Below are positions 22,844-64,000 of a stretch of 64,000 bases of DNA, piece by piece. Source of the DNA: Kiritimatiellia bacterium (GTDB lineage Bacteria > Verrucomicrobiota > Kiritimatiellia > JAAZAB01); NCBI GenBank assembly GCA_041653875.1, contig JBAZEM010000006.1:46585-110584 (forward strand). Direction: 5' to 3'. Position 1 is the stretch's first letter. Each line of letters opens with the position of its first letter. A program made the position numbers and the translations under genes. The notes beneath the pieces are model-generated. The model did no database searches. It had not been told where the DNA came from and was given only the letters and a program-made list of their open reading frames with translations.

Positions 22844-22925
22844 CTGACACCAGTCCTGAAAGGACGAAGGGCGGAAAAACGAAGAACTAAGAACTAAGAA
22901 CGAAGAACCAAGAACGCATTCCCCC

Positions 22926-26084: not shown

Positions 26085-26130
26085 CGAAGAACGAAGAACT
26101 AAGAACTCGGAACCCCCTGAACACTTAAAC

Positions 26131-29388: not shown

Positions 29389-29686
29389 GGCATTGCGCCA
29401 ATAAAATTCCAAATTCCAAATACCAAGTTTCAAATTTCAAGGAAACGCATCAATTACTTATGTAGTCCAGACGTGAAATTGCCGCCGGTTTACACCGGCG
29501 GCTACGTAGCCGCGCCTGTGAAGGCGTGGCTCTTCCAAGACCATGTCCAGTCTATTTCGGGAATGTTAATAAGGCAAAGGAAGGAAACCAAGGTTGATTT
29601 TGTCTTTATTGGGATTTTACTATTCCTTGTAATTTGGAACTTGGAATTTCTTGGATTGCGGGCGCAGCCCGCATAGGAGGAGGGCT

Positions 29687-30130: not shown

Positions 30131-30204
30131 GGCACGGATGATAGACGACGGAGGACGGACGCCAGACCGAGAAGATGGAAGCGGGACGCGGAGTGGCCGG
30201 CGGG

Positions 30205-30310
30205 CCATAACTGTAGCCGCGAGACGATAGGCGCGCGTTTCCGTAGCCGCGCCGATGAGGGCGTGGATTCCTTCGGCGGCCTAATTTGACGGATAGGAAT
30301 TTCAACTTAA
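30205..30310. repeat. Partial copy of BIME-like mosaic repeat (GTAGCCGCGAGACGA module plus linker CTAATTTGACGGATAGGAATTTCAA)
   Basis: Shares the GTAGCCGCGAGACGAC module and the linker with 62745-63360. Confidence 0.5.
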
Positions 30311-30325
30311 CGGAGGGTAAATGGC

Positions 30326-30889
30326 ATGAATCTATTGCATGGTCTGATTAAGAGTGTGCTTTCGGTGGGACTGCTGATCCTGGGCGTTTTGTTGCTGACC
30401 AATCTCGTTGTCGCCTTTCAGACGCCCTTGGGGGTGTTCCTGATCAACGACAAGCTGGGGCAGTTCCTGGTGGGGATTTCCGCCGTTTTCCTCGTGCTCC
30501 TGTACTGGCTGACGGGCGTTCCGATTAAGGACGAGCAGTTCCTCACGTTCGAAAACGAGGGCGGGGCGGTCAGCATCAGCGTGAAGGCGATCGACGATTT
30601 TCTCGCCAAGCTGGCGGACGAATTCGCGGGTATCATCCGGCTGCGCGCCGATGTGGCCGCCTCGCGCGATGGACGCGTCGAGGTGCGCCTGGACGTGAGC
30701 GTCAGGGCCGGCACCAAGGTCCAACAGTTGTCGCAGGTTCTTCAGCAACGGGTTCGGGAAAGCATGCGCGACAATCTCGGCATTGCCGAAATTCATTCCG
30801 TCAAGGTGAACGTGAGCTCCATTGTCGCCGCCGAGAAACCGGCCGCCGGCCATGCCGCCGACCGCGCCGACTGGCAGTCTGACGCCTGA
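30326..30889 (+). CDS. Alkaline shock response membrane anchor protein AmaP-like
   Basis: N-terminal TM helices plus a DUF322-like C-terminus. Paired with the Asp23 gene. Confidence 0.6.
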   Translation: MNLLHGLIKSVLSVGLLILGVLLLTNLVVAFQTPLGVFLINDKLGQFLVGISAVFLVLLYWLTGVPIKDEQFLTFENEGGAVSISVKAIDDFLAKLADEFAGIIRLRADVAASRDGRVEVRLDVSVRAGTKVQQLSQVLQQRVRESMRDNLGIAEIHSVKVNVSSIVAAEKPAAGHAADRADWQSDA

Positions 30890-30992
30890 CGCCTGACGAC
30901 GGACGACGGACGACGGACGACGGACGACGGACGACGGACGACGGACGACGGACGACGGACGACGGACGACGGACGACGGACGACGGACGACA
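30890..30992. repeat. Heptamer tandem array (GACGACG)n, about 13 copies
   Basis: ctgacgcctgacgcctgacgacggacgacggacgacgg... directly after the amaP stop. Related GACGACAGACGAC motifs occur at 22770-22850, 26040-26075, 30140-30190 and 34810-34860. Confidence 0.85.
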
Positions 30993-31064
30993 AGCAGGAG
31001 CGAATGACCGACTAACGAATGTCAAGTTTCTTTCTTCATTCTGCATTCTACATTCTGCATTTCT

Positions 31065-32291: not shown

Positions 32292-32470
32292 GTCGGTTCG
32301 ATTGCTGGTTTAATGTGTAGGAATTTTCCGCCGGAGGCGGTCCCGCCTGCGGTGGACAAAACCAAGCGGTTCTATCGAACCGCAACTACACCGGCTCGTT
32401 GTAGCGCCGTTCGAGAGAACGGCAAAGTCGCGGCCTTTGGCCGCCTAACTTGATGTACAGGAATTCAATA
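32292..32470. repeat. BIME-like mosaic repeat copy
   Basis: TGTAGGAATTTTCCGCC plus GCGGTTCTATCGAACCGCAACTACACC hairpin plus GTCGCGGCCTTTGGCCGCCTAACTTGATGTACAGGAATTCAA. Confidence 0.75.
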
Positions 32471-32577
32471 CCAAATTGGCGCGCGCCTGTCATTTTATTA
32501 ATGCAATCGCCGCGGGTTTGATTATAGTATGGCTCATTTCCAATGAATCGCAGCAACGCGGGCGACGAGAAATTGCC

Positions 32578-35190: not shown

Positions 35191-35301
35191 GATAAGTCGC
35201 CAAAGGCGGCAACTGTTTCATGTAGCCGCGGGCGTGAGCCAGTGGCCGCCGGAAGAATCCACGCCCTCACGGGCGCGGCTACCCGGATTGAGATTCCGAT
35301 C

Positions 35302-35684: not shown

Positions 35685-36944
35685 ACCATGACGATCGACA
35701 AAGCGTATTCATTGGCTCGCGAACAGTATGCTGTCCATGGGATCGACACAAACAAGGTCCTCAAGCAGTTGGCGGAAATTCGCATTTCGTTGCATTGCTG
35801 GCAGGGTGACGATGTGGCCGGTTTCGAGCCGCCTCGCGGTAATCTTGGCGGCGTATTGCCAACCGGTAATTATCCGGGCCGAGCGCGAACCCCGCAAGAA
35901 CTGCGCGCCGATCTGGCCAAGGCGTTGAGCTTGATTCCCGGGCGGCATCGCGTCAATCTCCATGCCATCTATGCGGAAACCAAGGCCCGGCCGGTCGAGC
36001 GTGACGAACTGGCGCCGGAGCATTTCGCCGATTGGGTGGCCTGGGCGCGCCTGCACAAACTGGGATTGGATTTCAACGGGTCTTTCTTTTCTCACCCGCT
36101 GGCCGAATCCGGGCGCACCTTGTCCCATCCGGATCGGGCCATCCGCCGGTTCTGGATCGACCACGCCCGCGCTTGCCGCCGGATCGGCGCGTTTATGGGA
36201 CGCCAATTGAAAACGCCCTGTGTGACCAACATCTGGATCCCGGATGGCTCCAAAGACACGCCGGCGGACCGCAAGGGGCCGCGCGAGCTGTTACAGCAGT
36301 CGTTGGACACAATCTTCAAAGAGTCATACCGTCCGGCTTATAATCTGGATGCGCTGGAAGGCAAGCTGTTCGGCCTGGGGTCGGAGTCCTATGTTGTCGG
36401 CTCGCACGATTTTTATCTGGCTTACGCGGTGGCGCATCGCAAGCTGTTATGCATGGATATGGGGCATTTCCATCCCACCGAATCGGTCGCCGACAAGTTG
36501 TCGGCCGTGCTCACCCAGTTGGATCGTGTGCTTTTGCATGTCAGCCGCGGTGTGCGTTGGGACAGCGATCATGTGGTGACTCTCACGGACGATCTCCGCG
36601 CCTTGGCGGAAGAAATCGTGCGCGGCGATTATTTGCGGCGTGTCCATATCGGGCTGGACTTTTTCGATGCCAGCATCAATCGGGTTGCCGCCTTAGTAAT
36701 TGGCGCCCGCGCCATGCTCCAAGCCCTGTTGATCGCGCTGTTGGAGCCCTCCGCCGCTCTGCGTCGGATGGAACGCCAGGGGGATTTCACGGCGCGGCTC
36801 GCCTTGATGGAGGAACTGAAAGGTCTGCCGTTTGGCGCCGTCTGGGATTATTACTGTTGCCGCCAGGATGTGCCCGCGAACCAGGCCTGGATGCGGGAAA
36901 TCAAGGCCTACGAAGTCGCGGTGCAATCCAAGCGCTGTCCGTAG
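35685..36944 (+). CDS. rhaA: L-rhamnose isomerase
   Basis: The N-terminus MTIDKAYSLAREQYAVHGIDTNKVLKQLAEIRISLHCWQGDDVAGFE matches the RhaA signature SMHCWQGDDVSGFE. Confidence 0.8.
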   Translation, partial: TMTIDKAYSLAREQYAVHGIDTNKVLKQLAEIRISLHCWQGDDVAGFEPPRGNLGGVLPTGNYPGRARTPQELRADLAKALSLIPGRHRVNLHAIYAETKARPVERDELAPEHFADWVAWARLHKLGLDFNGSFFSHPLAESGRTLSHPDRAIRRFWIDHARACRRIGAFMGRQLKTPCVTNIWIPDGSKDTPADRKGPRELLQQSLDTIFKESYRPAYNLDALEGKLFGLGSESYVVGSHDFYLAYAVAHRKLLCMDMGHFHPTESVADKLSAVLTQLDRVLLHVSRGVRWDSDHVVTLTDDLRALAEEIVRGDYLRRVHIGLDFFDASINRVAALVIGARAMLQALLIALLEPSAALRRMERQGDFTARLALMEELKGLPFGAVWDYYCCRQDVPANQAWMREIKAYEVAVQSKRCP

Positions 36945-37010
36945 CGGGTAACATGCCCGCCCTCCCTTGGGTTGCGGGCGCTTAGCCCGCCTTAAGGCCT
37001 TTTCTTTGTT
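36945..37010 (+). terminator. Terminator-associated inverted-repeat element (GCGGGC-loop-GCCCGC plus T-tract)
   Basis: Follows the rhaA stop. A near-identical inverted copy lies at 62640-62700 and a related core at 44950-44990. Confidence 0.55.
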
Positions 37011-44902: not shown

Positions 44903-44919
44903 ATATAAAACGTTCTTGG

Positions 44920-45030
44920 TTCCTGGTTCTTAGTTCTTTGTTTAGCGGGCAAATTCTTTGGGTTGCGGGCATCGCCCGCCTTAGATTAACGAAGAACCAA
45001 GAACCAAGAACGAAGAACCAAGAACAGTTT
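44920..45030. repeat. Long hairpin with (GAACNAA)n arms flanking a GGGTTGCGGGC..GCCCGCCTTA core
   Basis: Arms gttcttggttcctggttcttagttctttg / cgaagaaccaagaaccaagaacgaagaaccaagaac. A similar structure lies at 21440-21590. The motif recurs at 22870-22920 and 26080-26110. Confidence 0.7.
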
Positions 45031-48334: not shown

Positions 48335-48545
48335 TTCGAGTTGGGCCTTCGGCAACTATGCCGTTCTATCGAACGGCCTCTACACCGGACGGCCTGTCTG
48401 AACTCGACCAGGGGTGTAGTTGCGGTTCGATAGAACCGCTGTGTTTTAAATTTCCTATGCATTAAATTAAGCGCCGAAACGGGGCGACTTTTTTCCATGT
48501 AGAGCCGACTTTATGTCGGCTATCATAGCCGGTGTTCCGCCGTCG
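48335..48545. repeat. BIME-like mosaic repeat copy (inverted orientation)
   Basis: Reverse complement carries TAGGAAAT plus the GCGGTTCTATCGAACCGCAACTACACC hairpin. The plus strand carries the CATGTAGAGCCGACTTTATGTCGGCTATCATAGCCGGTGTTCCGCC module. Confidence 0.75.
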
Positions 48546-48596
48546 GTGCTGGGTTGCGGGTTCCCGCGTCGGACAATCATTATAGGAGGAGTGAGA

Positions 48597-49055: not shown

Positions 49056-50027
49056 ATGAAGACGATAACGAGCGTACTTATGAGCGGCATGATGTGGCTG
49101 GGCGCGGCCGGATTATCGATCGGCGCTGAAACCGGTGAGACGGTCAAGCCGGAAAAGACGCCGATAGTCTATCCGACGGCCATCTTTGCGTTCCAGGAGC
49201 GCGGTTCGGGCGTCAAGGACTATGGCGCCAAGGCGGCGGACATTCTCTTCGCGTCCCTGGCGGCGAATCCGGCCTTGTGCCTGGTGGACCGGGCGGACCT
49301 GCATAAATCGCTCCAGGAGCATGAACTGAACCTTTCCGGGATCGTGACTCCGGATCAGGCCGTGCAGATCGGCAAATTGACCGGTGCCCGGATCCTGGTG
49401 ACCGGCTCCGTGGTGGACGCGGATAAGACCATCTATGTGATCGCCAAGATCATCGGCACGGAGACCAGCCGCGTGTTGGGCGAGTCCGTGAAGGGCAAAT
49501 CGAGCGACGATCTCGCGCCCTTAATCGAGCAATTGGCGAAACAGGTGGCGGACACCATTGTCAAGAAAGCCGATCAATTGGTGGCCAAAGAAGTCAAGTT
49601 GGAAGACCGGATTGCCGCATTGAAAACCAAGTTGGGCGATGCCAAGCGACCGGTGGTTGCGATTAACGTCCAGGAGCGCCATGTCGGCCATATCACCATC
49701 GACCCGGCCGCCGAGACGGAATTGACGTTATTCTGCAAGGAAACGGGCTTTGAAGTTTTGGATAAGTCCGGGGACGCCAAAAAAGCCGACATCAGGCTGG
49801 AAGGCGAAGGGTTCAGCGAGTTTGCCATGCGCCACGGGAACTTGGTCAGCGTCAAGGCGCGCCTGGAGGTCAAGGCCATCGACCGCCAGACCGACAAAGT
49901 GATTGCCACGGACCGCCAGACCGCCGTGGTGGTGGACTTGACCGAAGAGATTGCCGGCAAATCCGCGCTCCAAAAAGCCGCGTCCGAGATCGCCGAACGT
50001 TTGTTGCCCAAGATCGTCAATAAGTGA
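49056..50027 (+). CDS. Secreted protein with CsgG/TolB-N-like alpha/beta domain and coiled coil
   Basis: Signal peptide. Motif ...LVDRADLHKSLQEHELNLSGIV...AVQIGKLTGARILVTGSV resembles the CsgG/LpoB/TolB-N fold signature. Paralogs at 56510 and 63691. Confidence 0.45.
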   Translation: MKTITSVLMSGMMWLGAAGLSIGAETGETVKPEKTPIVYPTAIFAFQERGSGVKDYGAKAADILFASLAANPALCLVDRADLHKSLQEHELNLSGIVTPDQAVQIGKLTGARILVTGSVVDADKTIYVIAKIIGTETSRVLGESVKGKSSDDLAPLIEQLAKQVADTIVKKADQLVAKEVKLEDRIAALKTKLGDAKRPVVAINVQERHVGHITIDPAAETELTLFCKETGFEVLDKSGDAKKADIRLEGEGFSEFAMRHGNLVSVKARLEVKAIDRQTDKVIATDRQTAVVVDLTEEIAGKSALQKAASEIAERLLPKIVNK

Positions 50028-52014: not shown

Positions 52015-55000
52015 ATGAGTAGGCTGATCGTCAGGATGTTATACTCAACGGTTCATCGTTGGAACTGTGCCATGCGCGTCACCTTGCATTTTTCACTCGC
52101 ATTCACTTGGCGGCATTGCGTTGTCCTTGTCTGTATTATGGCCGTTGTGGCGGTTGTCGCCAAGGCCGATACGCACTATGTGTCCCTCGCGGGAACGTCA
52201 GCCTCCCCTTATACGAACTGGGCGGAGGCGGCTAATTCGATCCAGGCGGCCGTGAACGTTGCCGGCGACGGGGACGAAGTTGTGGTGGCTGACGGGGACT
52301 ACATCCTTTCCGAACAAATCGTCATCGCCAAGGGAATCACGGTCCGGAGCGATCTCGGGCGTTCGATGTGTCGGATTGACGGCGACAATGTGTGCCGATG
52401 TATTTGGCTTGCCCACAGTAACGCCGTAGTCAGCGGGTTTACCATTACGCGGGGCTTGGCCGGCCAAGGGGGCCAATCTGACGGCGGTGGGGGGATTTAT
52501 GTTGACCGGGCCGGCACGGTGCGCGACTGCAGCATTGCCGATAATATTTGCTCCAATATCTACGGCGTAATGTGTGGCGGAGGAATATATCTTTCGGGTG
52601 GAGGGACAATCCAAAATTGCCTTGTGTCAGGCAATATAGCCGACAGTAGCGTAGCATCCGAGGGCGGCGGCATTTACATGTCTGGCGGTCTTGTCGAAAA
52701 TTGCCTTGTTATCGGCAATATTAATCGGCCGACAGGTTCGGGATGGGGCGGCGGCATTTATCTTGAAACGGGCATCGCGAATCATTGCACGATCGTGAAT
52801 AACAGCGGCGTATATTCGGGTGGCGGCGTATATCTGAAGTCCGGCGTCGTCGTCAATTCCATCGTTCTTTACAACCAGGCGACAGGATATCAGGAGTGTC
52901 GTATAGTTGGCGGCGGGTCGGTTTCATTCACCTGTTGCACCTGGTATGATGGAATGTCATACGATGCCGGCAATGTGTATAATAAAGACCCGCTTTTTGT
53001 CGATTATACGAACGGCGACTTCCATCTGCAGGAGGGCTCCCCATGCATCGATGCTGGGGCGACAACGGATGTTGTGACGGTGGACTACGAGTATGCGACC
53101 CGTCCTTTGGACGGCAATGTGGACGGGAATTTTCGCGTGGATATGGGCGCATTCGAATACCGTGTGACAGACCTGCGTTGCAGTGTGGCGGTGAACACCA
53201 ACCAGGGCTTCGATCCATTGCCGGTGCGATGCGAGTGCTTTACGGGCGGGACAAATCTCGATGGCCTGTATTACCGGTGGGACTTCGATAACGACGGCCA
53301 TATCGATCTTGCCGGCCCGGATTTGGCGGTGGTGACGAATACCTACACCAATTGGGGCTGGAAGACGATCACGGTGATGGTGAGCAATGTGGCGGGAGAA
53401 GCAGCGTCAGCGGCATTGACGAATGCTGTCAAGGTCGGTCATCCGTTGGTCTATGTCTCCCCCTCCGGCTCGAGTGTGTTTCCTTATACGAACTGGACGA
53501 TGGCCGCAACGAACCTGAATTCGATTGACGATCTGTTGGTGGATGGAACTGAGGTTGTCGTAACGAACGGCCATTATGACCTTTCTCAGGAATTTTCCCT
53601 GAATTTTGCCGTCACTTTAAGGAGCGTGAACGGCTGGAGGCAAACGACCTTGGATGGCAACGATATAACCCGTTGCGTTCGGCTTGCGCACTCTGGCGCC
53701 GTGGTTGACGGATTTACGCTGACCCGCGGTTCCGCTTTAAGTGGCGGCGGCGCCTATCTCAACGGCGGTACGGTGCGGAACTGCTGGATTCACGGCAATC
53801 GCGCTCGCAACGGTGGAATTTCCGGCGGCGGCGGCGTCTGTATGTACGGCGGAAGATTGGCAAACTCTTTGATTACCGGCAACAGTGCGGCCTCAAGTCC
53901 GGTCAACGAAGCCAATACGCGCGGCGGCGGCGTTTGGCTGAATAATGGCGGCATTGTCGAGTTCTGCACTATTATGGCTAATTCCATTTCATCCGGGCGA
54001 GGAGGTGGCGGGTTGTACGGAGGCGGTTCAGCATCCTCCGGGGGCACCCTCTACAATTGCATAATCTGGGGAAACACGGCGCCGACCGGCGCGAACATCG
54101 GTCAATGGAATAACTGCATCGGCGCTTATTACACGTGTTCGACTCTGACAGGTTATATGGCGAGCATGGAGGGGAATATCACAAACAATCCGTGCCTGAG
54201 CGCCGACTGGCATCTTCTGGCCGGGTCGCCGTGCATCAATGCGGGAACGAACCTTTCCACTGCGCCTATGGACATGGAAGGGATATCGAGGGACCTGGCC
54301 GGAAATCCGGACATGGGTTCCTTTGAATACAACGGAACGACCTATCCGCCAATGATTACGGATCATCCTCTGTCGCAGGCCAAAAACCCGGGGTCAACGG
54401 CAACCTTCAGTGTGGCGGTGGTGGGGATCGCGCCGCTGTATTACCAATGGCAGAAAAACGGCGTGAACATTGCATCGGCGAACAGCACGAACTATATGAT
54501 CAATCCGGTAATGGACTGGAGTGCGGGGGGATACCGTTGTCTGGTAAGCAACGCGGCAGGTGTTGTGGAGAGCGCGGTGGCGGTGCTGAACGTGAACGCG
54601 CCGGTGGCGATCGCGACTCAGCCGCAATCGCGCGCGAACAATCCGGGTTCGTCGGCGAGCTTCACTGTGGCGGCGACGGGGACCGCGCCGCTGTGTTACC
54701 AGTGGCAGAAAAACGGCGCGAACATTGAATTGGCGAGCAATACGATCTACATGATCGATTCGGTGGCGGCTGGTGACGCGGGGGCGTACCTTTGCCTGGT
54801 AAGCAACGTAGTCGGGGTGGTGGCAAGCGCGGTGGCGGTGCTGAGCGTAAACGCGCCGGTGGCGATCGCGACTCAGCCGCAATCGCGCGCGAACAATCCG
54901 GGTTCGTCGGCAACCTTCACTGTGGCGGCGACGGGGACCGCGCCGCTGTATTACCAGTGGCAGAAAAACGGCACGAACATCGAATCGGCAAGCAATACGA

Positions 55001-56415
55001 TCTACACGATCGATCCGGTAACGCTCGGCGACGTGGGGACATACCGTTGCCTGATAAGCAACGTGGTCGGTGTTGTGGAGAGCGACGCGGCCCTGTTGGG
55101 CGTAAATAATCCGGTGGCAATCACAACTCAGCCGGAATCGCAAACGATCAATCCGGGCGCATCCGCGAGCTTTACGGTGGTGGCGACGGGGACCGCGCCG
55201 CTGTGTTACCAATGGCAGAAAAATGGAGTGAACATTGGTTCGGCTAACAGTGCGACCTATATGATTGCTTCGGTAACGGATGGTGACGCGGGGGAGTACC
55301 GTTGCATAGTGAGCAACATGGCCGGCTCGGCCACAAGCGCCGTGGCAGTTCTGACCGTGCAAAAGGCGCTGCCGCCTCTTGCCCCCACGGGCGTGTTCGC
55401 CAGTGACGGAGAATACACCGACAAGGTGCGCGTAACCTGGAATGCGGTAGGCGAGGCAACCGGCTACCAGGTCTGGCGGAGTGCAAGCAATAACATCGCG
55501 ATCGCCTCCAACCTGGCAACCACCGCAACGACAACCTACGACGATCTGAACGCCGCCACGATGCCCGGAACTGTTTTTTATTACTGGGTGAGGGCCGTAA
55601 ACGCCGCGGGCGCCGGCGGTTTCAGCACAAACGATCCCGGCTATGTGAGACCCGCCATCGGGCCGACCATCAAGGCCAATGGCACGGTGGGGGATGTCGC
55701 CGTCAATTATCCGGACGCTATGGAAATCACCATCGAAATTAACGAGATCAACAATGAGGGGGCGCCTGCTGATTGGTGGGTTCTTTCGCTGGCCGGATCG
55801 TCCTGGTACTACTTGAATAATGCAGTTGAGTGGACGCCGTTCGATGGCGACCTTTCTAATTGTCATCCGCTGTACCAGGGCGGTTTATTCAATCTGCCGT
55901 CCACGCTGTTGCCGGTGTTGAATATACCCGGCTTGCCGGTTAGTTCATATTCGTTCTGGTTCGCGGTCGATGCGCAGATGGATGGAATTCTGAACGTGGA
56001 TGGGCAGATCCTGGTTGATTCAGTGAATGTCACCATGCTTTCGACGTTGCCCGCGCCCCGTATTAAGGCCAATGGCGCAACTGGTATTGTCAACGTCAAT
56101 TATCCCGATACTGTGTCAATCGCCGTGGATCTGACTGCCAGGGCTTATGCCGGTGTACCTGTCGATTGGTGGGTGCTTCTTTGTGCCGGCTCGTCTTGGT
56201 TTTATATGGATGGCACGGTGGGCTGGACGCAGGCTGGTGTTTTGCGGCCGGTGTACCAGGGTGCTTTGGGCAATCTGCCGGCCGTTGAAGTGTTGAATGT
56301 TCCCGGTTTAGGAATTGGCTCATATACGTTCTATTTTGCTGTCGATCTGCCGATGAATGGGATTCTGGATTTGGAACAGGTTTGGGTAGATTCGGTGACG
56401 GTAAACGTTCGGTAA
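52015..56415 (+). CDS. Giant surface protein: two right-handed beta-helix (pectate-lyase-like) modules, PKD domain, 5 tandem Ig-like domains, FN3-like and C-terminal repeats
   Basis: GGAGAC RBS. NxxGGGIY beta-helix rungs. PKD motif YRWDFDNDGH. Five 83-aa Ig repeats encoded by 249-bp DNA repeats at about 54360-55360. Confidence 0.75.
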   Translation: MSRLIVRMLYSTVHRWNCAMRVTLHFSLAFTWRHCVVLVCIMAVVAVVAKADTHYVSLAGTSASPYTNWAEAANSIQAAVNVAGDGDEVVVADGDYILSEQIVIAKGITVRSDLGRSMCRIDGDNVCRCIWLAHSNAVVSGFTITRGLAGQGGQSDGGGGIYVDRAGTVRDCSIADNICSNIYGVMCGGGIYLSGGGTIQNCLVSGNIADSSVASEGGGIYMSGGLVENCLVIGNINRPTGSGWGGGIYLETGIANHCTIVNNSGVYSGGGVYLKSGVVVNSIVLYNQATGYQECRIVGGGSVSFTCCTWYDGMSYDAGNVYNKDPLFVDYTNGDFHLQEGSPCIDAGATTDVVTVDYEYATRPLDGNVDGNFRVDMGAFEYRVTDLRCSVAVNTNQGFDPLPVRCECFTGGTNLDGLYYRWDFDNDGHIDLAGPDLAVVTNTYTNWGWKTITVMVSNVAGEAASAALTNAVKVGHPLVYVSPSGSSVFPYTNWTMAATNLNSIDDLLVDGTEVVVTNGHYDLSQEFSLNFAVTLRSVNGWRQTTLDGNDITRCVRLAHSGAVVDGFTLTRGSALSGGGAYLNGGTVRNCWIHGNRARNGGISGGGGVCMYGGRLANSLITGNSAASSPVNEANTRGGGVWLNNGGIVEFCTIMANSISSGRGGGGLYGGGSASSGGTLYNCIIWGNTAPTGANIGQWNNCIGAYYTCSTLTGYMASMEGNITNNPCLSADWHLLAGSPCINAGTNLSTAPMDMEGISRDLAGNPDMGSFEYNGTTYPPMITDHPLSQAKNPGSTATFSVAVVGIAPLYYQWQKNGVNIASANSTNYMINPVMDWSAGGYRCLVSNAAGVVESAVAVLNVNAPVAIATQPQSRANNPGSSASFTVAATGTAPLCYQWQKNGANIELASNTIYMIDSVAAGDAGAYLCLVSNVVGVVASAVAVLSVNAPVAIATQPQSRANNPGSSATFTVAATGTAPLYYQWQKNGTNIESASNTIYTIDPVTLGDVGTYRCLISNVVGVVESDAALLGVNNPVAITTQPESQTINPGASASFTVVATGTAPLCYQWQKNGVNIGSANSATYMIASVTDGDAGEYRCIVSNMAGSATSAVAVLTVQKALPPLAPTGVFASDGEYTDKVRVTWNAVGEATGYQVWRSASNNIAIASNLATTATTTYDDLNAATMPGTVFYYWVRAVNAAGAGGFSTNDPGYVRPAIGPTIKANGTVGDVAVNYPDAMEITIEINEINNEGAPADWWVLSLAGSSWYYLNNAVEWTPFDGDLSNCHPLYQGGLFNLPSTLLPVLNIPGLPVSSYSFWFAVDAQMDGILNVDGQILVDSVNVTMLSTLPAPRIKANGATGIVNVNYPDTVSIAVDLTARAYAGVPVDWWVLLCAGSSWFYMDGTVGWTQAGVLRPVYQGALGNLPAVEVLNVPGLGIGSYTFYFAVDLPMNGILDLEQVWVDSVTVNVR

Positions 56416-56509
56416 TTTGGGATGGAATCCTGACAACAAATACAGCAGTTTCGGGGGCGGCAACGTTGACATGGTTGTCCCGGCTCTCTCGCTTGAGTAT
56501 GGATCAATC

Positions 56510-57517
56510 ATGAAGTCTCGAAACCAAAAGCTTTTCGCCCTGTTACTGATCCTTGCCGGAATTGGAATGGGGTATCTATGGCCGGCCGAAGCCGGCGCGG
56601 CGGGGACGGCGCAGATCAGTCTGAGCGGGGCGGTCTATCATGGCAATGAGCCGGATTTGGGGTTGACTGACTTTTGGTTGGCCACTTTGTCGAAACAGGC
56701 AACCATTAAAGTGCTTGAGCGCGCAGATATGCGCGCCATTCTGGGAGAGCTTTCCCTGGCGGGGGTGAGCGACGACTCAGCGCGCCAGGTCCGGTTGGGC
56801 CGATTGCTGGGGGTCGAATATTTTGCATGGATTAAAGCGTCGGACGAACAGGCCCTTTTGGAAGTTGTCGAGGCGGCGACCGGCCGGGGTGTCACGGTCG
56901 TTCCTGTGCGCTTCGCCAAGGGGCATTTCGCCGATATCCTGCCAAAATTAGCGGAGCAAGCGGCTCAGGCGGTTAGCAAGCCACCGCCAGCTCCATCGCA
57001 GGTCGCGCCATCGCTTGCGTTTTCGAACCCCCGCTTTTCCACTTCCAACGAGACTGTGCAAGCGGCGGTGGAAAAAGTCATGGCCGATTTATCGGGCGCC
57101 TGGGCCGGTTCCGGCATTACGATGCTGCCGCGCCGTTTTGCGGCGGATGCGGTACAGGAACGCTGGCGGCAGGAAAAGGGACTGGTGGAAGACACCTCGC
57201 AAGGCCAGGCATTCCTGGGCGCCGATTACATTCTGGGCGTTGCCGTTGACGCCACGAATCGGATCGAATTGATCATGGTCGAAACGGTAACTGGGCGCCG
57301 GCTCGGGAAAAAGGAAATGCCTCTTGAGGTGGCGCGGACGACTGAAGGATTGAAAACCATGAAGGAATGGGGGTTGGACCGATTGAAGCCGCTCATGAAG
57401 ACTCCTTCCATCCTTCCTCCTGCCGCAGTATGCATTAGCCGATCTGGGACCGGAAATCCTCGCTCCTTTAACAAACGGCGACGCGGAAGCCATGCGGCGA
57501 ATAGAGGATCGCGTTAG
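56510..57517 (+). CDS. Secreted CsgG/TolB-N-like domain protein (possibly N-terminal part of a frameshifted fusion with the Sel1 gene)
   Basis: Signal peptide. Motif LERADMRAILGELSLAGV...VRLGRLLGVEYFAWIKAS. The last about 35 aa in this frame look non-proteinaceous, while the +1 frame reads through cleanly into the next ORF. Confidence 0.45.
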   Translation: MKSRNQKLFALLLILAGIGMGYLWPAEAGAAGTAQISLSGAVYHGNEPDLGLTDFWLATLSKQATIKVLERADMRAILGELSLAGVSDDSARQVRLGRLLGVEYFAWIKASDEQALLEVVEAATGRGVTVVPVRFAKGHFADILPKLAEQAAQAVSKPPPAPSQVAPSLAFSNPRFSTSNETVQAAVEKVMADLSGAWAGSGITMLPRRFAADAVQERWRQEKGLVEDTSQGQAFLGADYILGVAVDATNRIELIMVETVTGRRLGKKEMPLEVARTTEGLKTMKEWGLDRLKPLMKTPSILPPAAVCISRSGTGNPRSFNKRRRGSHAANRGSR

Positions 57518-58384: not shown

Positions 58385-58930
58385 ATGGATCAAAAATATG
58401 ATTATGTTGCCGTCAAAGGCGATAACATTTTCACAGGTAGGGCGAACCCTCCGGGTGAGCCGTTCTTCATCAAACGGCTCGGCAGGGACGCCTCGCCCTA
58501 CCATTTCGGCAATCCTATAAGAAAGCCATACCGAGCAAACCAGATAAGAATATCTTTTAAAAAAGGTTCCGAACTATATCCATTTTCAAACCGGCCATTT
58601 CAGGTAGAATTAGAACGGCGTTTGCACCAAATGCTGGACATTTACCTGGCCAGGCTCAGGACGCTCAAGCGCCGGCCGACGGAGACTGCCGGCGTCAATA
58701 CGGTGAACCCCGCAGACGTGAAAATATTCATCGTTGAGGGCCGGGAGGACACGCGCGCCAAAGTGCGGGAATTCGACAACCAATATCAACTGAAAACATA
58801 CGACGGCTCTATCCCGGTCATATATGTTTTTAATTCGGGACGATGGGTTAAAACCTACACCTACAGCCGCGATCCCGGCCCGAATGGCCTGGAGTTGAAG
58901 GCGCTGGTGGAAAGCTTGCTGGCAAAATGA
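58385..58930 (+). CDS. Hypothetical protein
   Basis: ATG at 58385 immediately after the upstream stop. No recognisable motif. Confidence 0.4.
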   Translation: MDQKYDYVAVKGDNIFTGRANPPGEPFFIKRLGRDASPYHFGNPIRKPYRANQIRISFKKGSELYPFSNRPFQVELERRLHQMLDIYLARLRTLKRRPTETAGVNTVNPADVKIFIVEGREDTRAKVREFDNQYQLKTYDGSIPVIYVFNSGRWVKTYTYSRDPGPNGLELKALVESLLAK

Positions 58931-59115
58931 AGCAATGGCTTGTTTATATTGGCATCTTGCTGGTGACAGCGGCGGTCACATATGCCGGTGACGATTCGGC
59001 TATCCGGATTGCCGTACTGGCCGAGGATGTGTCGCCGGAAAGTCGCGCCTTGACCGACCTGCTAACGGCCGACCTCTTCCAAGTCAAATACGTTTTGAAA
59101 ACATTCGGAGATTAA
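58927..59115 (+). CDS. Small secreted hypothetical protein
   Basis: ATGA-coupled. Signal-peptide-like N-terminus. Confidence 0.3.
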   Translation: MKQWLVYIGILLVTAAVTYAGDDSAIRIAVLAEDVSPESRALTDLLTADLFQVKYVLKTFGD

Positions 59116-59119
59116 ATTC

Positions 59120-62100
59120 GTGAAGTTACAAAATCCATCTCTTTTTGGACTGCTTTCGATCCTTTTGGGACTGGGCATGGCCGCAGGGTGTTTCCCTCCA
59201 AGGAACGCAAATTCCAAGACCACCGAACAACCGGACGTGCCGCGCCCCTTGGTGATTGTCGAGCGCGGCGAGATGGATCCTTCCGGAAGTGAAGGGATTT
59301 TGCTCCGTGAATTGGGACGCCAGGCGGTGATGATCGCCGCCCGCGAGGGGTTGGGCGCCCGCACGTGGGACATGACGCTCATGGATACGGCGCCAAGTCC
59401 GGCGGCCACCAACGCGTTAACGGTTCGGCTGTGGATGTCGGCCACAACCAACGGTTTCAAAATCGGCCTAAAGTCGGTCGGCGCCAATGGCGCGACCGCT
59501 CAGTTGCTGGAGCGAACGATCGAGACTCCGGCGCGGCAGTTCCTGGACTATGAAACGCTCATTGCCAACCTTGAAGCCATGTCGCGCTCCACGTTTGTCG
59601 ATGCATTGAAATCGGCGGGCATTGCGCCGGTCGTGATCCCACAGTCAACAGGTCATGTGCGGACGGCATCATCCGGAAATGACGCTTTATGGGGCAGTAT
59701 GGACGTCTTTACTCACTGGGCGGCTCTGCGTGCGCTTCATAATGAGATTCGCATTCAGGGGGAATCGTCCGCCAATCTGGCGGAACTGGCGCGGGGTTAC
59801 GCCAATATGGCGCAGATGACCCGTTTTTGCTGGAACTCGATGGATAAGGCGTGCATGGCGCGAGCCTTGCTCTATGCCCAGCGCCTGATGGCTACCCGGC
59901 CGGAAATGTCCATGGCCAGGGCTTATCGCGCTTATGTTCGGGCATTGTGTGAAAGGCATGGGCCGGCCTTGGAAGATATCGACGCTGTGCGCAAAGCCTG
60001 TGGCGGCCGGACGAATGACCTTCCGGCATGGTTGGACATCCTGGCGTCCTATTGCCGATATCGAACGGCAGTCCTCAATGACCGGGCCGAGAAGGAGCCG
60101 AATAATCAACTCTTGTCGTTACTCCGGGTCATGGCTGTTCGCAACGCGAGGAGCGAGACAGTCCGGTTAAACATAATCCAGGATGCCCTGAAGAAGGCGC
60201 CGTTGTGTTCTGTCCTGTATGACGACTGGTGCGCCGTGCCGGGGGTATCGGTGGGGCACCAGGCGACAACCATGTCGCCCGTCGCATTTGCTTCGACCCT
60301 GTGCCAAATAATTAGCAGAATGAAAATCCTGCCGAATGAGATACGCGAGCTGGCGCTGCAGGGCGAAAAACAGCGACATGATCGGCGAGGCTCTGCGGGG
60401 TCGGACGTGGACGCTAAACTGCCTGGTTTTCAGGACGCGGCGATCCGAACCAACCTGGTCCATAACTTGTATGCCATCGGCGAGAAAGACTCGCGGGAAC
60501 CCTCCGTAGCCATGTTAGGAGCGCTGATCGAGAGTGCCTCGTTCGTTCAAATCCAACGCCGTTTTTATTTTATGGCTGATGTGTGGGGTCTTCCTTCGGA
60601 AGAAATAAAGACGCTTATGCCCGCCGTCAAGCCTTACATTGCCTCCCATCCCTATCGGGCGTTCATCGAAAGCTATGCGTTAAATCCGCAACGCGACAAG
60701 TCGGTCTATACCCAATCGATGGCTGGGTTGGTCGTGATGGATATGAAGCCCGCCATGGCGCCCATCGTCAAAGTCCGCCCCCCTCTCGACATCAACGCTC
60801 AGTCCGATCAAATCGCCGGCGACCTGGAATCCCGGATTTTAAAACAAGCGTCCCGGAAGGAACCGGACAATGCCAGGGAGTTGCAGCGGGATGTCGCCGA
60901 ACTGGAATTGATCAGTCCGTTTTCTCCGGTGGCCGTGACCGCCCGCATCAAGATCGATTGGGACCAGTCGGCGAATCGCGTGGCGGCGTGGGAAGCGTGC
61001 GCTTCGGAACAGCCGGATATTGCCCGCGCCCTGGCTTTGAAGTACCGCGAACTTGAGCGCTATCGAGAGGCGGAACGTTTTTTGCATTTCTGGGCAGATC
61101 AGACGCGGGACTACTCAGCCTATTATGCGTTGGCGAATAACTTTTCGCGGCAAGGACAGACTAACGAGTGGTTGGCCACGATGGAAGACGCTCTGAAAAA
61201 TGTCCGGGATACCGGTCTCGATCATGCCGATATTCGGATAAAAATCGCCCTTTATTATATGCGGCTCGGGCAATGGTTAAAAGCCGTTCCTTATGCCGAA
61301 ACAGCCGCCAAAACATGGGCCGCTCGGGCCATGACCTGCGCCGCGCAATGTTATGAAGGCGCGGGCCAATGGGCGCAGGCCGAGCAGTGGGTCCGCCGAA
61401 ATGCGGAGCGCTATGACGGGGAGCGCCTGAAATGGTATTGCTGGTGCCGGCGCACGGGGCAGGGGAACGCGTCCGCCGCGCTGGCCTTTGCGAACAAGTA
61501 TGCGGCAACATTCGAGGCCAGCGAACAGACCAAGGATCGATATTGGGCGGCGGCTTTCTATCAATTAAGCGGCGACACAAACAAAGCGCTTGAAATATGG
61601 TCGAAAGCTTACACGCAACATCGCCATCCTTATCCCGGTCTCCACGCCGTATTGTTGCTGTCCCAACTGAATCGGTCCCATGAACGGGATGCTTTGCTTA
61701 AAAAAATAGTGAAGCGCGCCGATTCGCGCACAAGTCAGCGAAGCGATTTGCCCGCCCTGAATGCAATGGCCGTGTTGTTCCAGCAATATTTGGGCGGGGC
61801 CGACCGTCTGGATTTCGATGAAAAGGCGGCGGATATCGTCGCTTATAGCGACGATGCCGATGAGCGCGAATATTTGTGCTATTTTGCCGGATATTTCTAC
61901 GAATTAATGGGCGAGCCGGAATTGTCGGTTGCATACTACGAACGCGCCGACGATCTTTTTTTGCCGTATATGCAGCCGGTCTATCTGGCCGGCGCCGCCC
62001 GGCAACGACTTAAGGCCGGCGGCAAAATGGCGGGACGGCCGGGCGCGAACCTAAATCGCCCAGGCAAATACGACAGCGCCATAGAGTTTGCCCGGAAGAA

Positions 62101-62635
62101 GATATCCATGATGGAATCCGAGTTCGGCACGAACCATCTCGATGTGGGGGATGCGGTGTATGAACTGGGCAATCTCTATTACAAGCAAGGCCAATACGCG
62201 GCGGCCGGGCCGCTCTACCAACGTGCGCTGACGATCTGGGAGAAGGCGCTCGGCGCCGGCAATCGCGATTTGGCCGTTCCATTAAGGGCTTTGGGATTGG
62301 TCTATTATAAACAAGGCCGGTATGCTGTGGCTGAACCGTTCTTCCAACGTGCCTTGGCGATCCGGGAGAAAGCCTTGGATCCCAACCACGTCGATGCGGC
62401 CGAGTCGTTGCGTGACCTTGCCCGTCTATATTACAGGCAAAAGCGATACGCGGCGGCCGAGCCGCTCTACCGCCGCGCCTTGGCGATTTTGGAAAAAGCC
62501 CGCGGCCCTGACCATCCCGATGTGGCAAGGGTTATGGAAGACATGGCGCATCTCTATGGCAAGACCGGCGACAAAACGAAGGAACTCGAGTACAAAGAAC
62601 GTGCCGCCAAAATCCGTGAAAAATCGCGTAAATGA
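59120..62635 (+). CDS. Large lipoprotein with C-terminal TPR (TPR_10/12, kinesin-light-chain-like) repeats
   Basis: GTG start. Lipobox LGLGMAAGC. C-terminal repeats LGNLYYKQGQYAAAGPLYQRALTIWEKALG x4. Confidence 0.65.
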   Translation: MKLQNPSLFGLLSILLGLGMAAGCFPPRNANSKTTEQPDVPRPLVIVERGEMDPSGSEGILLRELGRQAVMIAAREGLGARTWDMTLMDTAPSPAATNALTVRLWMSATTNGFKIGLKSVGANGATAQLLERTIETPARQFLDYETLIANLEAMSRSTFVDALKSAGIAPVVIPQSTGHVRTASSGNDALWGSMDVFTHWAALRALHNEIRIQGESSANLAELARGYANMAQMTRFCWNSMDKACMARALLYAQRLMATRPEMSMARAYRAYVRALCERHGPALEDIDAVRKACGGRTNDLPAWLDILASYCRYRTAVLNDRAEKEPNNQLLSLLRVMAVRNARSETVRLNIIQDALKKAPLCSVLYDDWCAVPGVSVGHQATTMSPVAFASTLCQIISRMKILPNEIRELALQGEKQRHDRRGSAGSDVDAKLPGFQDAAIRTNLVHNLYAIGEKDSREPSVAMLGALIESASFVQIQRRFYFMADVWGLPSEEIKTLMPAVKPYIASHPYRAFIESYALNPQRDKSVYTQSMAGLVVMDMKPAMAPIVKVRPPLDINAQSDQIAGDLESRILKQASRKEPDNARELQRDVAELELISPFSPVAVTARIKIDWDQSANRVAAWEACASEQPDIARALALKYRELERYREAERFLHFWADQTRDYSAYYALANNFSRQGQTNEWLATMEDALKNVRDTGLDHADIRIKIALYYMRLGQWLKAVPYAETAAKTWAARAMTCAAQCYEGAGQWAQAEQWVRRNAERYDGERLKWYCWCRRTGQGNASAALAFANKYAATFEASEQTKDRYWAAAFYQLSGDTNKALEIWSKAYTQHRHPYPGLHAVLLLSQLNRSHERDALLKKIVKRADSRTSQRSDLPALNAMAVLFQQYLGGADRLDFDEKAADIVAYSDDADEREYLCYFAGYFYELMGEPELSVAYYERADDLFLPYMQPVYLAGAARQRLKAGGKMAGRPGANLNRPGKYDSAIEFARKKISMMESEFGTNHLDVGDAVYELGNLYYKQGQYAAAGPLYQRALTIWEKALGAGNRDLAVPLRALGLVYYKQGRYAVAEPFFQRALAIREKALDPNHVDAAESLRDLARLYYRQKRYAAAEPLYRRALAILEKARGPDHPDVARVMEDMAHLYGKTGDKTKELEYKERAAKIREKSRK

Positions 62636-62639
62636 TACG

Positions 62640-62700
62640 CCTTATCTTTAAGGCGGGCTAAGCGCCCGCAACCCAAGGGAGGGCGGGCATGTTGCCCGCT
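62640..62700. terminator. Inverted copy of the terminator-associated repeat found after rhaA
   Basis: Reverse complement of 36946-37000 with 2-3 mismatches. Directly follows the stop of the TPR gene. Confidence 0.55.
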
Positions 62701-62744
62701 ACGGACAGCGACACGCTGTCCCTCCCAAAAACATACACGCAAAA

Positions 62745-63360
62745 ACGTGTATCTTTACGGAAAAGGTGCTAAGGGAACAACTCGGGTAGTCAGGAGTCGG
62801 AATAACTTGATCTACAGGAATTTTCCGCCATTGGCGTATCCCTGGCCGAGCTCGGGCAGGACGCCTCCGGCGGACAAAGTTGTAGCCGCGAGACGACCCG
62901 CCTGCAACGCTTCGCGTAGCGATGCGGGCAGGTAGGCTCGCGCAATTAGCCGAAAACGCCAGGCTTCGCCGGAGCGCTTCGCCCAGGCGAGTCGGCCTAA
63001 ACGTCCGACGGCCTGCCCGCAATGCTACGCATAGCGTTGCAGGCGGGCTACAGTTACAGTAACAGTCGCGGCCTTCGGCCGCCTACCTTGATGTTAAGGA
63101 AATTCAACCCAGGTAGAGCCGGTTTTTCCTCCATAGGCGGATCCGCCTCCGGCGGAACACCGGCTATAATAGCCGACATAAAGTCGGCTCTACATGGAAC
63201 AGTTGCGGCCTTTGGCCGCCTAACTCGATGCATAGGAAATCCAAACCCGCCGGGTCAGGGGACCCGGCCTACAATACTGTAGGCCCGGTGCCCTCACCGG
63301 GCGTTATGAAAAGCCGCCCCGCTGCGGGGCCTAACTCGATCTAATAGGAAATTGTATTTT
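62745..63360. repeat. BIME-like mosaic repeat array (largest copy; at least 4 linker motifs)
   Basis: Linkers at about 62800, 63095, 63215 and 63330 with 115-120 bp spacing. Modules shared with 14866-15245 and 48335-48545. Confidence 0.8.
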
Positions 63361-63690
63361 TTGAGAATTTGCGTCTGGACTAAGAAAAATGATTTATTGG
63401 TAGGGCTCGGTTGCCTGCCCGCCATAGCCCCGGGCGACGGCGGGTCCCTGCCGAGCCGTTTGTGGAAGAACGGCCCACCCGGCCGTCGTCGCGCCGAAGT
63501 GACGCTATGCCGGGCCGCGAAGGCGGAAGGGTGGTCCCTACCTTGCGGAAGTCCGCGGAGCGCGGTTTTACGCGCTCTGCGATAAGTGCACCATTTTGAT
63601 GAGTGAAAGCTCTGTAAATACGGGGCGCGGCGATATGGTATATGAAATTATTCATTTACGAGCCCTAAGCATAAATATGTCCGGACAATT

Positions 63691-64000
63691 ATGATCTCTT
63701 TAGTACACCGCCGTCGATCATTTCTGCCTCGGCCTTGGCGCTGGGCCGTTCCGGCGTTTTTCTTGCCGCTGGCCCTGATGCTGACCTGCATTCCGGCCGG
63801 CGGGGTTGAAACAACGGTGGCCGTCCTTAATTTCGCCAATACGCATGCCGGCGCTGAAAAAGACCAACAGCGCTGGTTATCCAAAGGGCTGGCCGACCTG
63901 TTAATCGGCGACCTCTCGCTTTCCAAGCAACTCCGCGTCGTCACGCGGGAGGACATGCAGGTGCTTATGCAGGAAGCCGAACTCATCGACAAAGCGATCG
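63691..64000 (+). CDS. Partial (5' end) secreted CsgG/TolB-N-like domain protein, third paralog
   Basis: Manual translation: signal peptide then VAVLNFANTHAG...LSKGLADLLIGDLSLSKQLRVVTREDMQVLMQEAELID. It runs off the window end. Confidence 0.45.
   Translation, partial: MISLVHRRRSFLPRPWRWAVPAFFLPLALMLTCIPAGGVETTVAVLNFANTHAGAEKDQQRWLSKGLADLLIGDLSLSKQLRVVTREDMQVLMQEAELIDKAI

Follow-up and report, generated by a model that had tools for sequence, protein, structure and literature searches.

A probable REP-type mosaic of oriented hairpin modules in a Kiritimatiellia intergenic spacer, delimited by a junction sequence found in several phyla

A hairpin array upstream of a CsgG-family gene

Near the end of a 64,000-nucleotide (nt) stretch of contig JBAZEM010000006.1 from a Kiritimatiellia bacterium (assembly GCA_041653875.1, positions 46,585 to 110,584 of the forward strand; hereafter the window, in whose coordinates positions are given), a spacer of 1,055 bp separates the gene for a TPR-repeat protein of 1171 residues (59120-62635, + strand) from a CsgG-family, lipoprotein-like open reading frame (ORF) that the window end cuts after its N-terminal part (63691-64000, +; Pfam CsgG, E = 9.5e-7). 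Within this spacer, on the 5' side of the CsgG-like ORF and about 335 bp from it, lies an array of hairpins interrupted by a recurring 'linker'. An original prediction, made from the sequence alone, had correctly placed the array there, and took a regular spacing of about 118 bp, which it saw among the last three of four linker copies, to suggest templated amplification. We argue here that the region is probably a mosaic cluster of the type formed by bacterial interspersed mosaic elements (BIMEs) and by REPINs, hairpins of two inverted repetitive extragenic palindromic (REP) sequences, and that it consists of three non-identical, non-coding hairpin modules arranged head-to-tail. This judgement blends two others of unequal strength: that the locus is a mosaic of mobile REP-like modules seems to us very likely, while the mover that we propose by analogy, a Y1 HUH enzyme acting at TTNAT, is put forward tentatively.

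The linker, CTAACTYGAT-N4/5-AGGAAWT, occurs in four copies on the + strand, at 62802-62822, 63083-63103, 63220-63240 and 63331-63352, the last with a gap of 5 nt. Its 4-N form, with up to three mismatches allowed, is matched six times in the window against 0.14 expected, and six matches were reached in none of 100 shuffled sequences. The four predicted copies (starting at 62802, 63083, 63220 and 63331) are therefore real, although the first is the weakest, being recognised only with three mismatches and having no hairpin upstream. The predicted regularity did not survive measurement: start-to-start distances are 281, 137 and 111 bp, Tandem Repeats Finder (TRF) reported no array at 62745-63360 and no row between 57421 and 64000, and the internal repetition is confined to about 50 nt, comprising the small hairpin, the junction and the start of the unit that follows. 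The segments between the copies are indeed rich in hairpins, the whole array folding as single-stranded DNA (ssDNA) with -160.7 kcal/mol (z = -10.3). The array is not an assembly artefact, since an independent NCBI contig from a metagenome-assembled genome (MAG), L118, is 100% identical to the window over 58700-63822 and a second independent assembly, L119, is 100% identical up to 63212 (L numbers designate the loci and contigs collected for comparison).

Anatomy of the modules

Because each unit has a left end, a core and a right end, the 'linker' is not a separate element but the place where the right end of a module meets the left end of its successor, and the spacing is simply module length. 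The left end is unpaired and about 16-19 nt long (NNNN-AGGAAWTYCAA); the core is variable and made of GTAG-tagged REP palindromes, mostly as an inverted pair; the right end comprises an A-rich stretch, AGTC or AGTT, a small GC hairpin of one of two types (GCGGCC-TTY-GGCCGC or GCCCCG-CTG-CGGGGC) and exactly 10 unpaired nt, CTAACTYGAT, which finish in T(T/C)GAT. The junction is accordingly laid out as a right-end hairpin followed by CTAACTTGAT|GTATAGGAATTTCAA. Single-strand folds gave the same picture for every module, with an unpaired left end, core hairpins, the right-end hairpin and the 10 unpaired terminal nt (z -4.0 to -6.7).

In the first junction (ATAACTTGAT|CTACAGGAATT, 62802-62822, +) the left half belongs to the flank and the right half supplies the left end of module A' (281 nt, 62812-63092, +). 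Behind this left end A' has a double-hairpin 'head' with an extra nested hairpin, a long compound palindrome that starts with GTAGCCGCG and whose 36-nt arms (62897-62932 and 63012-63047) are 89% complementary, and a right end (63068-63092, +) formed by the hairpin GCGGCC-TTC-GGCCGC and the 10 nt CTACCTTGAT. Module B' (137 nt, 63093-63229, +) is composed of the unpaired left end GTTAAGGAAATTCAA, a GTAG...CTAC palindrome (GTAGAGCCGG..CCGGCTCTAC) and a right end; a 33-nt double hairpin, the 'A-head' (63124-63156), sits inside a hairpin loop. Module C (111 nt, 63230-63340, +) begins with the left end GCATAGGAAATCCAAAC, continues with two GTAG-tagged REPs placed head-to-head (63249-63272 and 63279-63303, the latter reading GTAGGCCCGGTGCCCTCACCGGGCG) and ends with a hairpin at 63316-63330 and the terminal CTAACTCGAT; its two REPs follow GTAGGCC(G/C)GGT(C/G)CCCT(G/C)ACC(C/G)GGCG, with compensatory changes in the stem. 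After the last TTGAT-type end there is an orphan left end (CTAATAGGAAATTGTAT, 63341-63357, +), which with 63331-63340 makes up the fourth junction and whose extension TAGGAAWTTGTATTYT is also found in L005, L012, L042 and L066.

The core hairpins have the properties of GTAG-tagged REPs, GC-rich stem-loops of 20-40 bp that leave GTAG, or a near variant of it, unpaired at one of their ends: GTAG or CTAC stands at the foot of 28 of the 98 perfect-hairpin entries of the window (some hairpins being entered under more than one stem/loop setting), against a background of about 1% per 10-mer, and in a small alignment of REP units the column pair 12/25 is CG in three sequences and GC in three, a compensatory swap. 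They are also extragenic and grouped, as an inverted pair is present in each of modules A, B and C and all six clusters of the window are intergenic; the window has about 17 tagged hairpins. REPs in alternating orientation, separated by conserved linker motifs, make the array a BIME as a structural category only; the Y and Z REP types and the S, L, l and r linkers of E. coli are absent here.

Related clusters in the window

A hidden Markov model of the right end plus junction located five more clusters, on both strands. A sister array with the order A-B-C (14873-15249, +; junctions at 14873, 15009, 15128 and 15240) lies between exbB-like and ABC-ATPase genes, both on the - strand. Single modules were found at 30200-30306 (+; GTAGCCGCG-type REPs, ending in CTAATTTGAC|GGATAGGAATTTCAAC), at 32310-32470 (+; a module A between the divergent DUF1015 and leuS genes, with TTAAT before it and the orphan left end GTACAGGAATTCAA after it) and at 35189-35300 (-; degenerate ends, abutting the leuS stop codon), and a two-module array, a partial B followed by the core of A, at 48335-48575 (-; junction TTAATTTAAT|GCATAGGAAATTT). 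Placement is independent of the strand of the neighbouring genes, and within an array all modules point the same way. Junction spacings in the window are 141, 119, 112, 140, 281, 137 and 111 bp, with about 125 bp in the array at 48 kb (clusters are hereafter named by position: 15k, 30k, 32k, 48k and 63k); the rough clustering at 110-140 bp stems from module size alone, a typical module being a REP dimer with conserved ends.

As had been predicted, two of the segments recur in the window: 63093-63229 corresponds to 15019-15137 and to 48460-48575(-), and 63230-63340 to 15138-15249. The copies of C are 96% identical; B' and B are 87% identical over aligned columns, B' having the A-head insertion and the other type of right-end hairpin. 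The A modules at 15 and 32 kb are 85% identical, and A' has only head and tail in common with A. Since ends, heads and cores are recombined among modules, amplification of one template does not describe the array; what stands is the broader view of a mosaic of different hairpin units with a recurring linker, which are junction-specific, on the same strand and head-to-tail, a non-random arrangement.

Gain and loss of modules between relatives

To align the spacer between leuS and DUF1015, relatives with conserved flanks were fetched from metagenomes through their DUF1015 protein. In L122 (83% amino acid identity) the site is empty of a module and holds 11-12 unrelated nt, and in L125 (82%) the module A of the window is replaced by a different module with ends of the same kind (GCATAGGAATTTCAATCC ... 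GCCCCGCTGCGGAGC-CTGATTGAT); both modules begin directly after GGTT(T/C)AAT (3' of GGTTNAAT). Yet other repeats occupy the site in L121, L123, L124 and L127. The pentamers on the left flank of modules are TTGAT (14873 and 62807), TTAAT (32310) and TCAAT (L125), without target duplication; entry is therefore 3' of a TTNAT-type pentamer, as in miniature IS200/IS605 elements of the kind of the palindrome-associated transposable elements (PATEs), whose left end lies 3' of a fixed tetra- or pentanucleotide, the pentamer being relaxed here. Palindromes are also inserted on their own. Two Desulfobacterales MAGs with flanks about 92% identical differ by a 105-nt palindrome, present in L048 (2615-2720) and cleanly absent from L002 (~450), and its insertion point lies inside a small hairpin, GCGGYGAAGCC^GC, which mirrors the nested insertions in A' and B'. 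On our reading the modules are non-autonomous mobile DNA that close relatives gain, lose and exchange, always in one orientation.

The arms of the L048 palindrome (CCCGCCCGC...GCGTTGCGGGCAG) resemble those of A' (CCCGCCTGCAACGC...GCGTTGCAGGCGGG) and also palindromes in L027, L039, L073 and L074. Four independent metagenome contigs end in or at the edge of hairpin arrays, L115 (48373), L116 (48366), L119 (63212) and L120 (62677), and the modules thus fragment short-read assemblies. L117, from the same sample as L113, is 99.8% identical to the window through the TPR gene, then shows single-nucleotide polymorphisms inside the A' palindrome (L117 4440-4560 against 62925-63010) and diverges beyond about 63010, where pilin-like (N_methyl/T2SSG) genes replace the rest of the array; it has either been rearranged at the repeat or is a chimera assembled through a paralogous copy.

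The junction in other phyla

A pattern scan of species-representative genomes, the source genome not being among those scanned, matched the junction pattern at no fewer than 112 loci, and the junction occurs in at least eight bacterial phyla. Chance matches are expected at the length of this pattern. In 74 of the 112 matches listed, however, the gap closes with AT or AC, a feature that formed no part of the search pattern (binomial P = 1e-39). For the 5-N subtype, CTAACTTGAT-nGTAT-AGGAATT-TCCATTTT, TCC or TTC comes next in 39 of the 60 listed matches, with about 2 expected; for the 4-N subtype, CTAACTTGAT-GTAT-AGGAATT-TCAA, the final TCAA is present in 10 of the 14 listed matches (0.05 expected). 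In copies anchored on the right half only, the left half is looser but conserved (yTAAyTTnAT). The hosts include Desulfobacterales and other Thermodesulfobacteriota, Brocadiaceae, Scalindua, Anammoxibacter, Phycisphaerae, Pirellulales, Nitrospinota, Thermodesulfovibrionia, Elusimicrobiota, Verrucomicrobiota, Lentisphaerae, Victivallales, Latescibacterota and two Bacillota. The junctions are intergenic, and their arrangements relative to the neighbouring genes are 16 (--), 14 (++), 14 convergent (+-) and 6 divergent (-+). In genomes of the Planctomycetes-Verrucomicrobia-Chlamydiae group GTAG-tagged palindromes come after the 4-N junction, just as they do in the window (for example, GTAGAGCGACC...GGTCGCTCTAC in Brocadia). 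Same-strand arrays occur in about a dozen loci of other phyla with a spacing of 61-316 bp, so that the regularity assumed in the original prediction is absent from other genomes as it is from the window.

Among viral contigs a loose pattern gave 120 matches, none with the CTAAC extension, and the specific pattern none; a BLAST search of a plasmid collection with the junction consensus returned no significant match (best E = 0.5). Rfam, applied with gathering and E-value thresholds to the window and to 12 loci of other phyla, assigned nothing to the arrays; outside them it recognised cobalamin and c-di-GMP riboswitches and one tRNA, the best sub-threshold match being Pseudomon-groES (23.9 bits, cutoff 50). 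Small ORFs overlapping the array had no Pfam match, and a literature search on the junction sequence returned only primers and no description of the junction. The integration host factor consensus, dif/Xer-like symmetry and a sigma-70 promoter in either orientation were rejected by eye, as the required positions are not conserved.

A proposed mechanism and the search for a mobilising enzyme

In the mechanism that we propose, modules would move as ssDNA through a trans-acting Y1 HUH enzyme encoded elsewhere, either a REP-associated tyrosine transposase (RAYT) or a protein like the TnpA of IS200/IS605. A module would enter directly 3' of a TTNAT-type pentamer, including the TTGAT that ends a resident module, and arrays would build up in this way, stacking in one orientation because a right end finishing in TTGAT recreates the target; smaller palindromes would also nest in the loops of existing hairpins and so produce the mosaic. 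Arrays that stop exactly at ...TTGAT and give way to unrelated flank are seen at 15k, in L117 (position 5554), in L125 and in L090.

Candidates for the enzyme were sought among the genes near junctions. All-versus-all clustering of 1042 junction-near ORFs yielded no recurrent family, and Pfam searches of the 120 nearest ORFs, of 10 directly downstream and of 7 lying between junction pairs found housekeeping genes only, with no recurring transposase, Rep, recombinase or nuclease among the junction neighbours. A tblastn search with E. coli RayT against 1.4 Mb of collected loci gave no relevant match, no RAYT (Y1 HUH) was among the 25 most frequent of the 52 Pfam families of window ORFs, and a scan of the window ORFs for the GIY-YIG motif was negative.

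Several observations weigh against our interpretation. These searches brought to light no transposase or nuclease gene, either in the window or beside 74 junctions elsewhere, and in the limited sample that these 74 loci represent the ORFs adjoining or separating junctions included no autonomous relative with tnpA or tnpB. Modules differ in the hairpin that comes first after the left end, and this hairpin is also unlike the right-end one, so the similar subterminal hairpins and matching guides that characterise PATE-like elements are lacking; no conserved guide is visible 5' of the left hairpin and, since the same AAGTC precedes the hairpin for TCGAT and TTGAT ends, guide and cleavage site do not covary. 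The left half of the junction is itself variable (TTGAT, TCGAT, TTAAT, TTCAAT...), with no covarying partner found, and a right-end hairpin accompanies the 5-N subtype in 5 of 59 cases against 0-6 of 59 in controls, no enrichment, for which reason a universal right-end hairpin was rejected for this subtype. The empty-site comparison for a junction-bounded module uses relatives with a diverged spacer, and the independent assemblies that extend over the array, L118, L119 and L120 (the last to its end, 62677), all show it with 100% identity, so that the 63k locus gives no sign of current activity. Finally, an orphan left end comes after the cluster at 30k, at 32k and at 63k; simple insertion after TTGAT does not predict this, and it suggests a full junction-like site as the target.

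Comparison with known systems

GTAG-tagged REPs form head-to-head dimers, and clusters with flanking DNA, and are cleaved by RAYTs (PMC3733652), whose substrates they are (PMC3733652, PMC3333891). Like the BIMEs and GTAG-tagged REPs of Enterobacteria and Pseudomonas, the elements described here are intergenic clusters of GTAG-tagged, GC-rich palindromes, mostly inverted pairs, which conserved, non-palindromic linker motifs turn into mosaics of variable composition; they lie on either strand, with a preference for positions after genes. Unlike in BIMEs, each REP dimer lies between oriented left and right ends, and the units of an array all run in one direction. REP and BIME linkers are normally species-specific, as S, L, l and r are, whereas the junction is common to several phyla and the host here is a Kiritimatiellia bacterium. 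With REPINs (PMC3116915; PMC3333891) the modules have in common two inverted REPs that form a long hairpin, a non-autonomous nature, multiple copies and a presumed mobilisation in trans, in REPINs by a single-copy Y1 HUH enzyme that cleaves ssDNA at GTAG; they differ in that no RAYT gene came to light in the searches described above, that conserved ends lie outside the REPs and that the apparent insertion point is a TTNAT pentamer, not a REP. The GTAG REP dimers of Anabaena variabilis are enclosed in palindromes that contain TATAGGAnTnnnATTTGATT (PMC3733652), and these palindromes may be related to the junction elements.

ISDra2, of the IS200/IS605 family, has subterminal hairpins and inserts as ssDNA 3' of TTGAT, without duplication and in about 90% of cases at TTGAT|G (PMC2806898, PMC5934647, PMC8612924). 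The modules resemble such elements in their placement 3' of TTGAT, mostly at TTGAT|G, in the lack of target duplication and of terminal inverted repeats, in subterminal hairpins that unpaired nt separate from the end and in their strict orientation, and an IS200/IS605 element whose right end recreates its target would also be expected to stack head-to-tail. In IS200/IS605 the two ends carry similar hairpins to which TnpA binds, and the target has to be matched by a guide lying 5' of the left hairpin; the modules, in contrast, have no tnpA or tnpB, unrelated left and right hairpins, no recognisable guide tetranucleotide and a relaxed pentamer.

The closest analogy in organisation is offered by the intergenic mosaic elements of Neisseria, in which dRS3/NTS repeats flank RS units and for which the GIY-YIG ssDNA nuclease Ssn is described (PMC1797815, PMC11893778), dRS3/NTS being the site of this small nuclease, which is conserved across phyla (PMC11893778). 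There too a short, recurring, oriented repeat separates different units of 50-150 bp, the Neisseria repeat being conserved in distant bacteria through its recognition by a dedicated small ssDNA enzyme, and in L082 and L065, which belong to one uncultured genome, an NTS-like hairpin lies exactly at the right-end position, abutting CTAACTTGAT. Unlike dRS3/NTS, a palindrome of the form ATTCCC-N8-GGGAAT, the junction is non-palindromic, and no ssn gene was seen. The pattern of the Ssn-related motif (SRM), HGTCWYN(0-2)YYVSBRHN(0-5)WNVSBRGN(0-2)RNCYNB, has its sole window match at 33754(-), inside leuS, and none in the arrays; right ends contain (A)GTC, a stem and C, and fail the pattern at its W position. 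The leuS ORF (32476-35190) holds an inverted dRS3/NTS-like pair at 33707-33781, TTGTCATTCCCGATCCAATCGGGAATCCAG (+) and TGTCATTCCCGCGAAAGCGGGAATCCAG (-), of which TGTCATTCCCGCGAAAGCGGGAATCCAG comes very close to the NTS consensus of Neisseria and accounts for the one SRM match in the window; the same 28-mer is present in a Sedimentisphaerales MAG (L068).

Alternative explanations

Templated amplification, by which one unit would be copied in tandem through slippage, rolling-circle copying or unequal crossing-over and so give regular spacing, appears to us very improbable. It would fit the clustering of module sizes at 111-141 bp and the two near-identical tandem units of L061, and because both the module order A-B-C and, at 90% identity, a 144-nt block of B tail, junction and C recur between the 15k and the 63k array, a multi-module block was probably duplicated at least once; yet the three units of the 63k array differ in both sequence and length, their cores are unrelated, distances vary there as they do elsewhere, only the 50 nt or so of end sequence are common, and a true tandem repeat of one amplified unit was rejected on the negative TRF result. 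The look of repeat-spacer-repeat, with N+1 repeats, also recalls a guide array of the CRISPR or TIGR kind, in which the linker would be the repeat and the hairpins the spacers. Such 'spacers' would be 85-260 nt long, highly structured and recurrent in the same genome, in tiny (1-3 units), scattered arrays; no Cas or Tas domain is among the 25 most frequent window Pfam families, no CRISPR family reached the Rfam threshold, and the regular identical repeats and unique, uniform spacers of a CRISPR array were not found, so that this reading is excluded in practice. A function in RNA, with the array as a string of structured units (mRNA stabilisers, terminators or processed small RNAs) and the junction as a processing or ribosome-binding site, has several points in its favour. 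Folding predicts a strong structure, the right end read from the opposite strand resembles an intrinsic terminator (a GC hairpin, then GGCTTTTCAT), several junctions elsewhere begin within a few nt of the upstream stop codon, which the TAA of CTAAC sometimes provides, in L003 AGGAATTTCC is directly followed by the ATG of an ORF, and REPs have been proposed as RNA elements (PMC3733652). We nevertheless consider it unlikely and disfavour it because orientation shows no preference, either in the window (15k and 48k antisense, 63k sense) or across 74 loci; cores are interchangeable and vary between close relatives, and the conservation of an oriented junction across phyla would be left unexplained. 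With no orientation bias, no Rfam family and no Pfam match on overlapping ORFs, the element is probably one of DNA rather than of RNA.

The main rival of our interpretation is cassette exchange, in which the full junction of about 25-30 nt would be the recognition and crossover site of a site-specific enzyme, either a rolling-circle Rep or IS91-type HUH protein nicking CTTG|AT or a tyrosine or serine recombinase, and modules would be excised as circles with one junction and re-inserted at other junctions, including solitary ones. We hold this to be a minority possibility. It accommodates the N+1 full junctions that the 63k array has for N modules, the 32k and 30k clusters, which also end in the right half of a junction, the resemblance to CTAACTTGAT of array-initial left halves that have no upstream module (62802, ATAACTTGAT; L010, L003 and L008), the terminal right half of L061, which is of the canonical solitary type and not the module's own left end, and the predominance of solitary junctions among the matches listed from other phyla. 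CTTGATA is the nick site of pC194/pUB110-type plasmids. The 5-N junction CTTGATAG-TATAGGAAT resembles the nick region of pUB110, CTTGATACATATAGAAAT (CTTGATAcaTATAGaAAT): CTTGATA, upstream of the pUB110 rep gene and at one of the two CTTGATA sites of pC194, is held in common, and pUB110 continues with ..TATAG.AAT, similar to the 5-N junction. Two plasmids only were inspected, the similarity is short and requires a gap, and the elements are chromosomal and non-coding; the resemblance is a lead and not a test. Against cassette exchange, several arrays end at TTGAT without a right half (15k, 48k, L090, L117 and L125), the presumed nick hexamer is not strictly conserved, the junction lacks the dyad symmetry expected of a tyrosine-recombinase core, no Rep or recombinase gene is nearby, and the viral contigs and the plasmid collection gave no specific or significant match.

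Other features of the window

Between the TPR stop codon and the array there are other hairpin repeats (62636-62760, no strand assigned), among them a hairpin-rich repeat of 63 nt directly 3' of the stop (62648-62710), which has no junction motif, belongs to a separate repeat family and has a 98% identical inverted copy 26 kb away, at 36933-36995(-). Between the array and the CsgG-like gene lies a further GTAGGG...CCCTAC compound palindrome (63401-63545, +; z = -3.3). The CsgG-like gene beside the array belongs to a set of paralogues, three such ORFs lying within 15 kb: 49056-50027 (by the Pfam annotation of L113), 56417-57517 (weak, E = 0.0067) and 63691-64000 (E = 9.5e-7), interleaved with a 1505-residue Ig-repeat protein and with Sel1/TPR proteins.

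Tandem runs of 7 bp, and some of 8 bp, are scattered over the window, many of them intergenic and often as inverted pairs around a spacer, as in (CGTTCTT)n ... (AACGAAG)n. Heptamer runs are located at 21440-21474 / 21536-21566, 22770-22916, 23936-24047, 26057-26106, 29404-29440, 30879-30991, 31032-31061, 34811-34858 and 44912-45025, and octamers at 39583 and 42683; one run, (GACGACG)x14, is perfect. Heptamer runs of CACAGAT and CACGGAT follow the junction in Scalindua, Nitrospinae and Desulfobacteraceae loci, and similar runs are present in L123 and L127. Longer tandem repeats lie at 2541-3298 (129 bp x 5.9, 90% identity, within the ORF 2534-4321) and at 54398-55325 (255 bp x 3.6, 81% identity, the Ig-domain repeats of the 1505-residue protein). 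Cobalamin riboswitches at 6898-7083(-) and 19982-20149(-), scoring 69 and 67 bits, precede genes for a TonB-dependent receptor and for ABC/FecCD-type transport. GC skew is slightly negative over 1-20 kb and positive over 20-64 kb, changing at about 16-20 kb, and the long ORFs are mostly on the minus strand before 20 kb and mixed to mostly plus after it; this region may be a replication-related switch point.

Implications

For the locus alone the outcome is deflationary: it is a REP-type mosaic cluster of ordinary appearance that occupies a long intergenic spacer, and no regularly templated array. In practical terms, such modules break metagenome assemblies, as in the four contigs described above, and may cause mis-joins (L117). 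The one property out of the ordinary is the junction, a single oriented sequence that delimits hairpin modules in Kiritimatiellota and Desulfobacterota alike, with no enzyme gene nearby, and as such the cross-phylum junction is a worthwhile lead. This oriented sequence of 25-30 nt (CTAAYTTNAT | N4-5 AGGAAWTYC) may be the recognition and joining site of an ssDNA enzyme, of HUH Rep/transposase-like kind or a small Ssn-type nuclease, that shuffles hairpin cassettes between junctions, the system having spread horizontally through at least eight or nine phyla (those concerned are Kiritimatiellota, Lentisphaerota, Planctomycetota including anammox bacteria, Verrucomicrobiota, Desulfobacterota, Nitrospinota, Nitrospirota, Elusimicrobiota, Latescibacterota and some Bacillota); we offer this as a speculation with the odds against it. 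If true, the modules would represent an undescribed and very widespread class of non-autonomous mobile DNA with a cassette-like logic, and not lineage-specific REPs. An enzyme that recognises the junction, if it exists, would make a third pair of a small ssDNA enzyme and a genome-wide repeat, beside RAYT/REP and Ssn/NTS, and could serve as a sequence-specific ssDNA tool.

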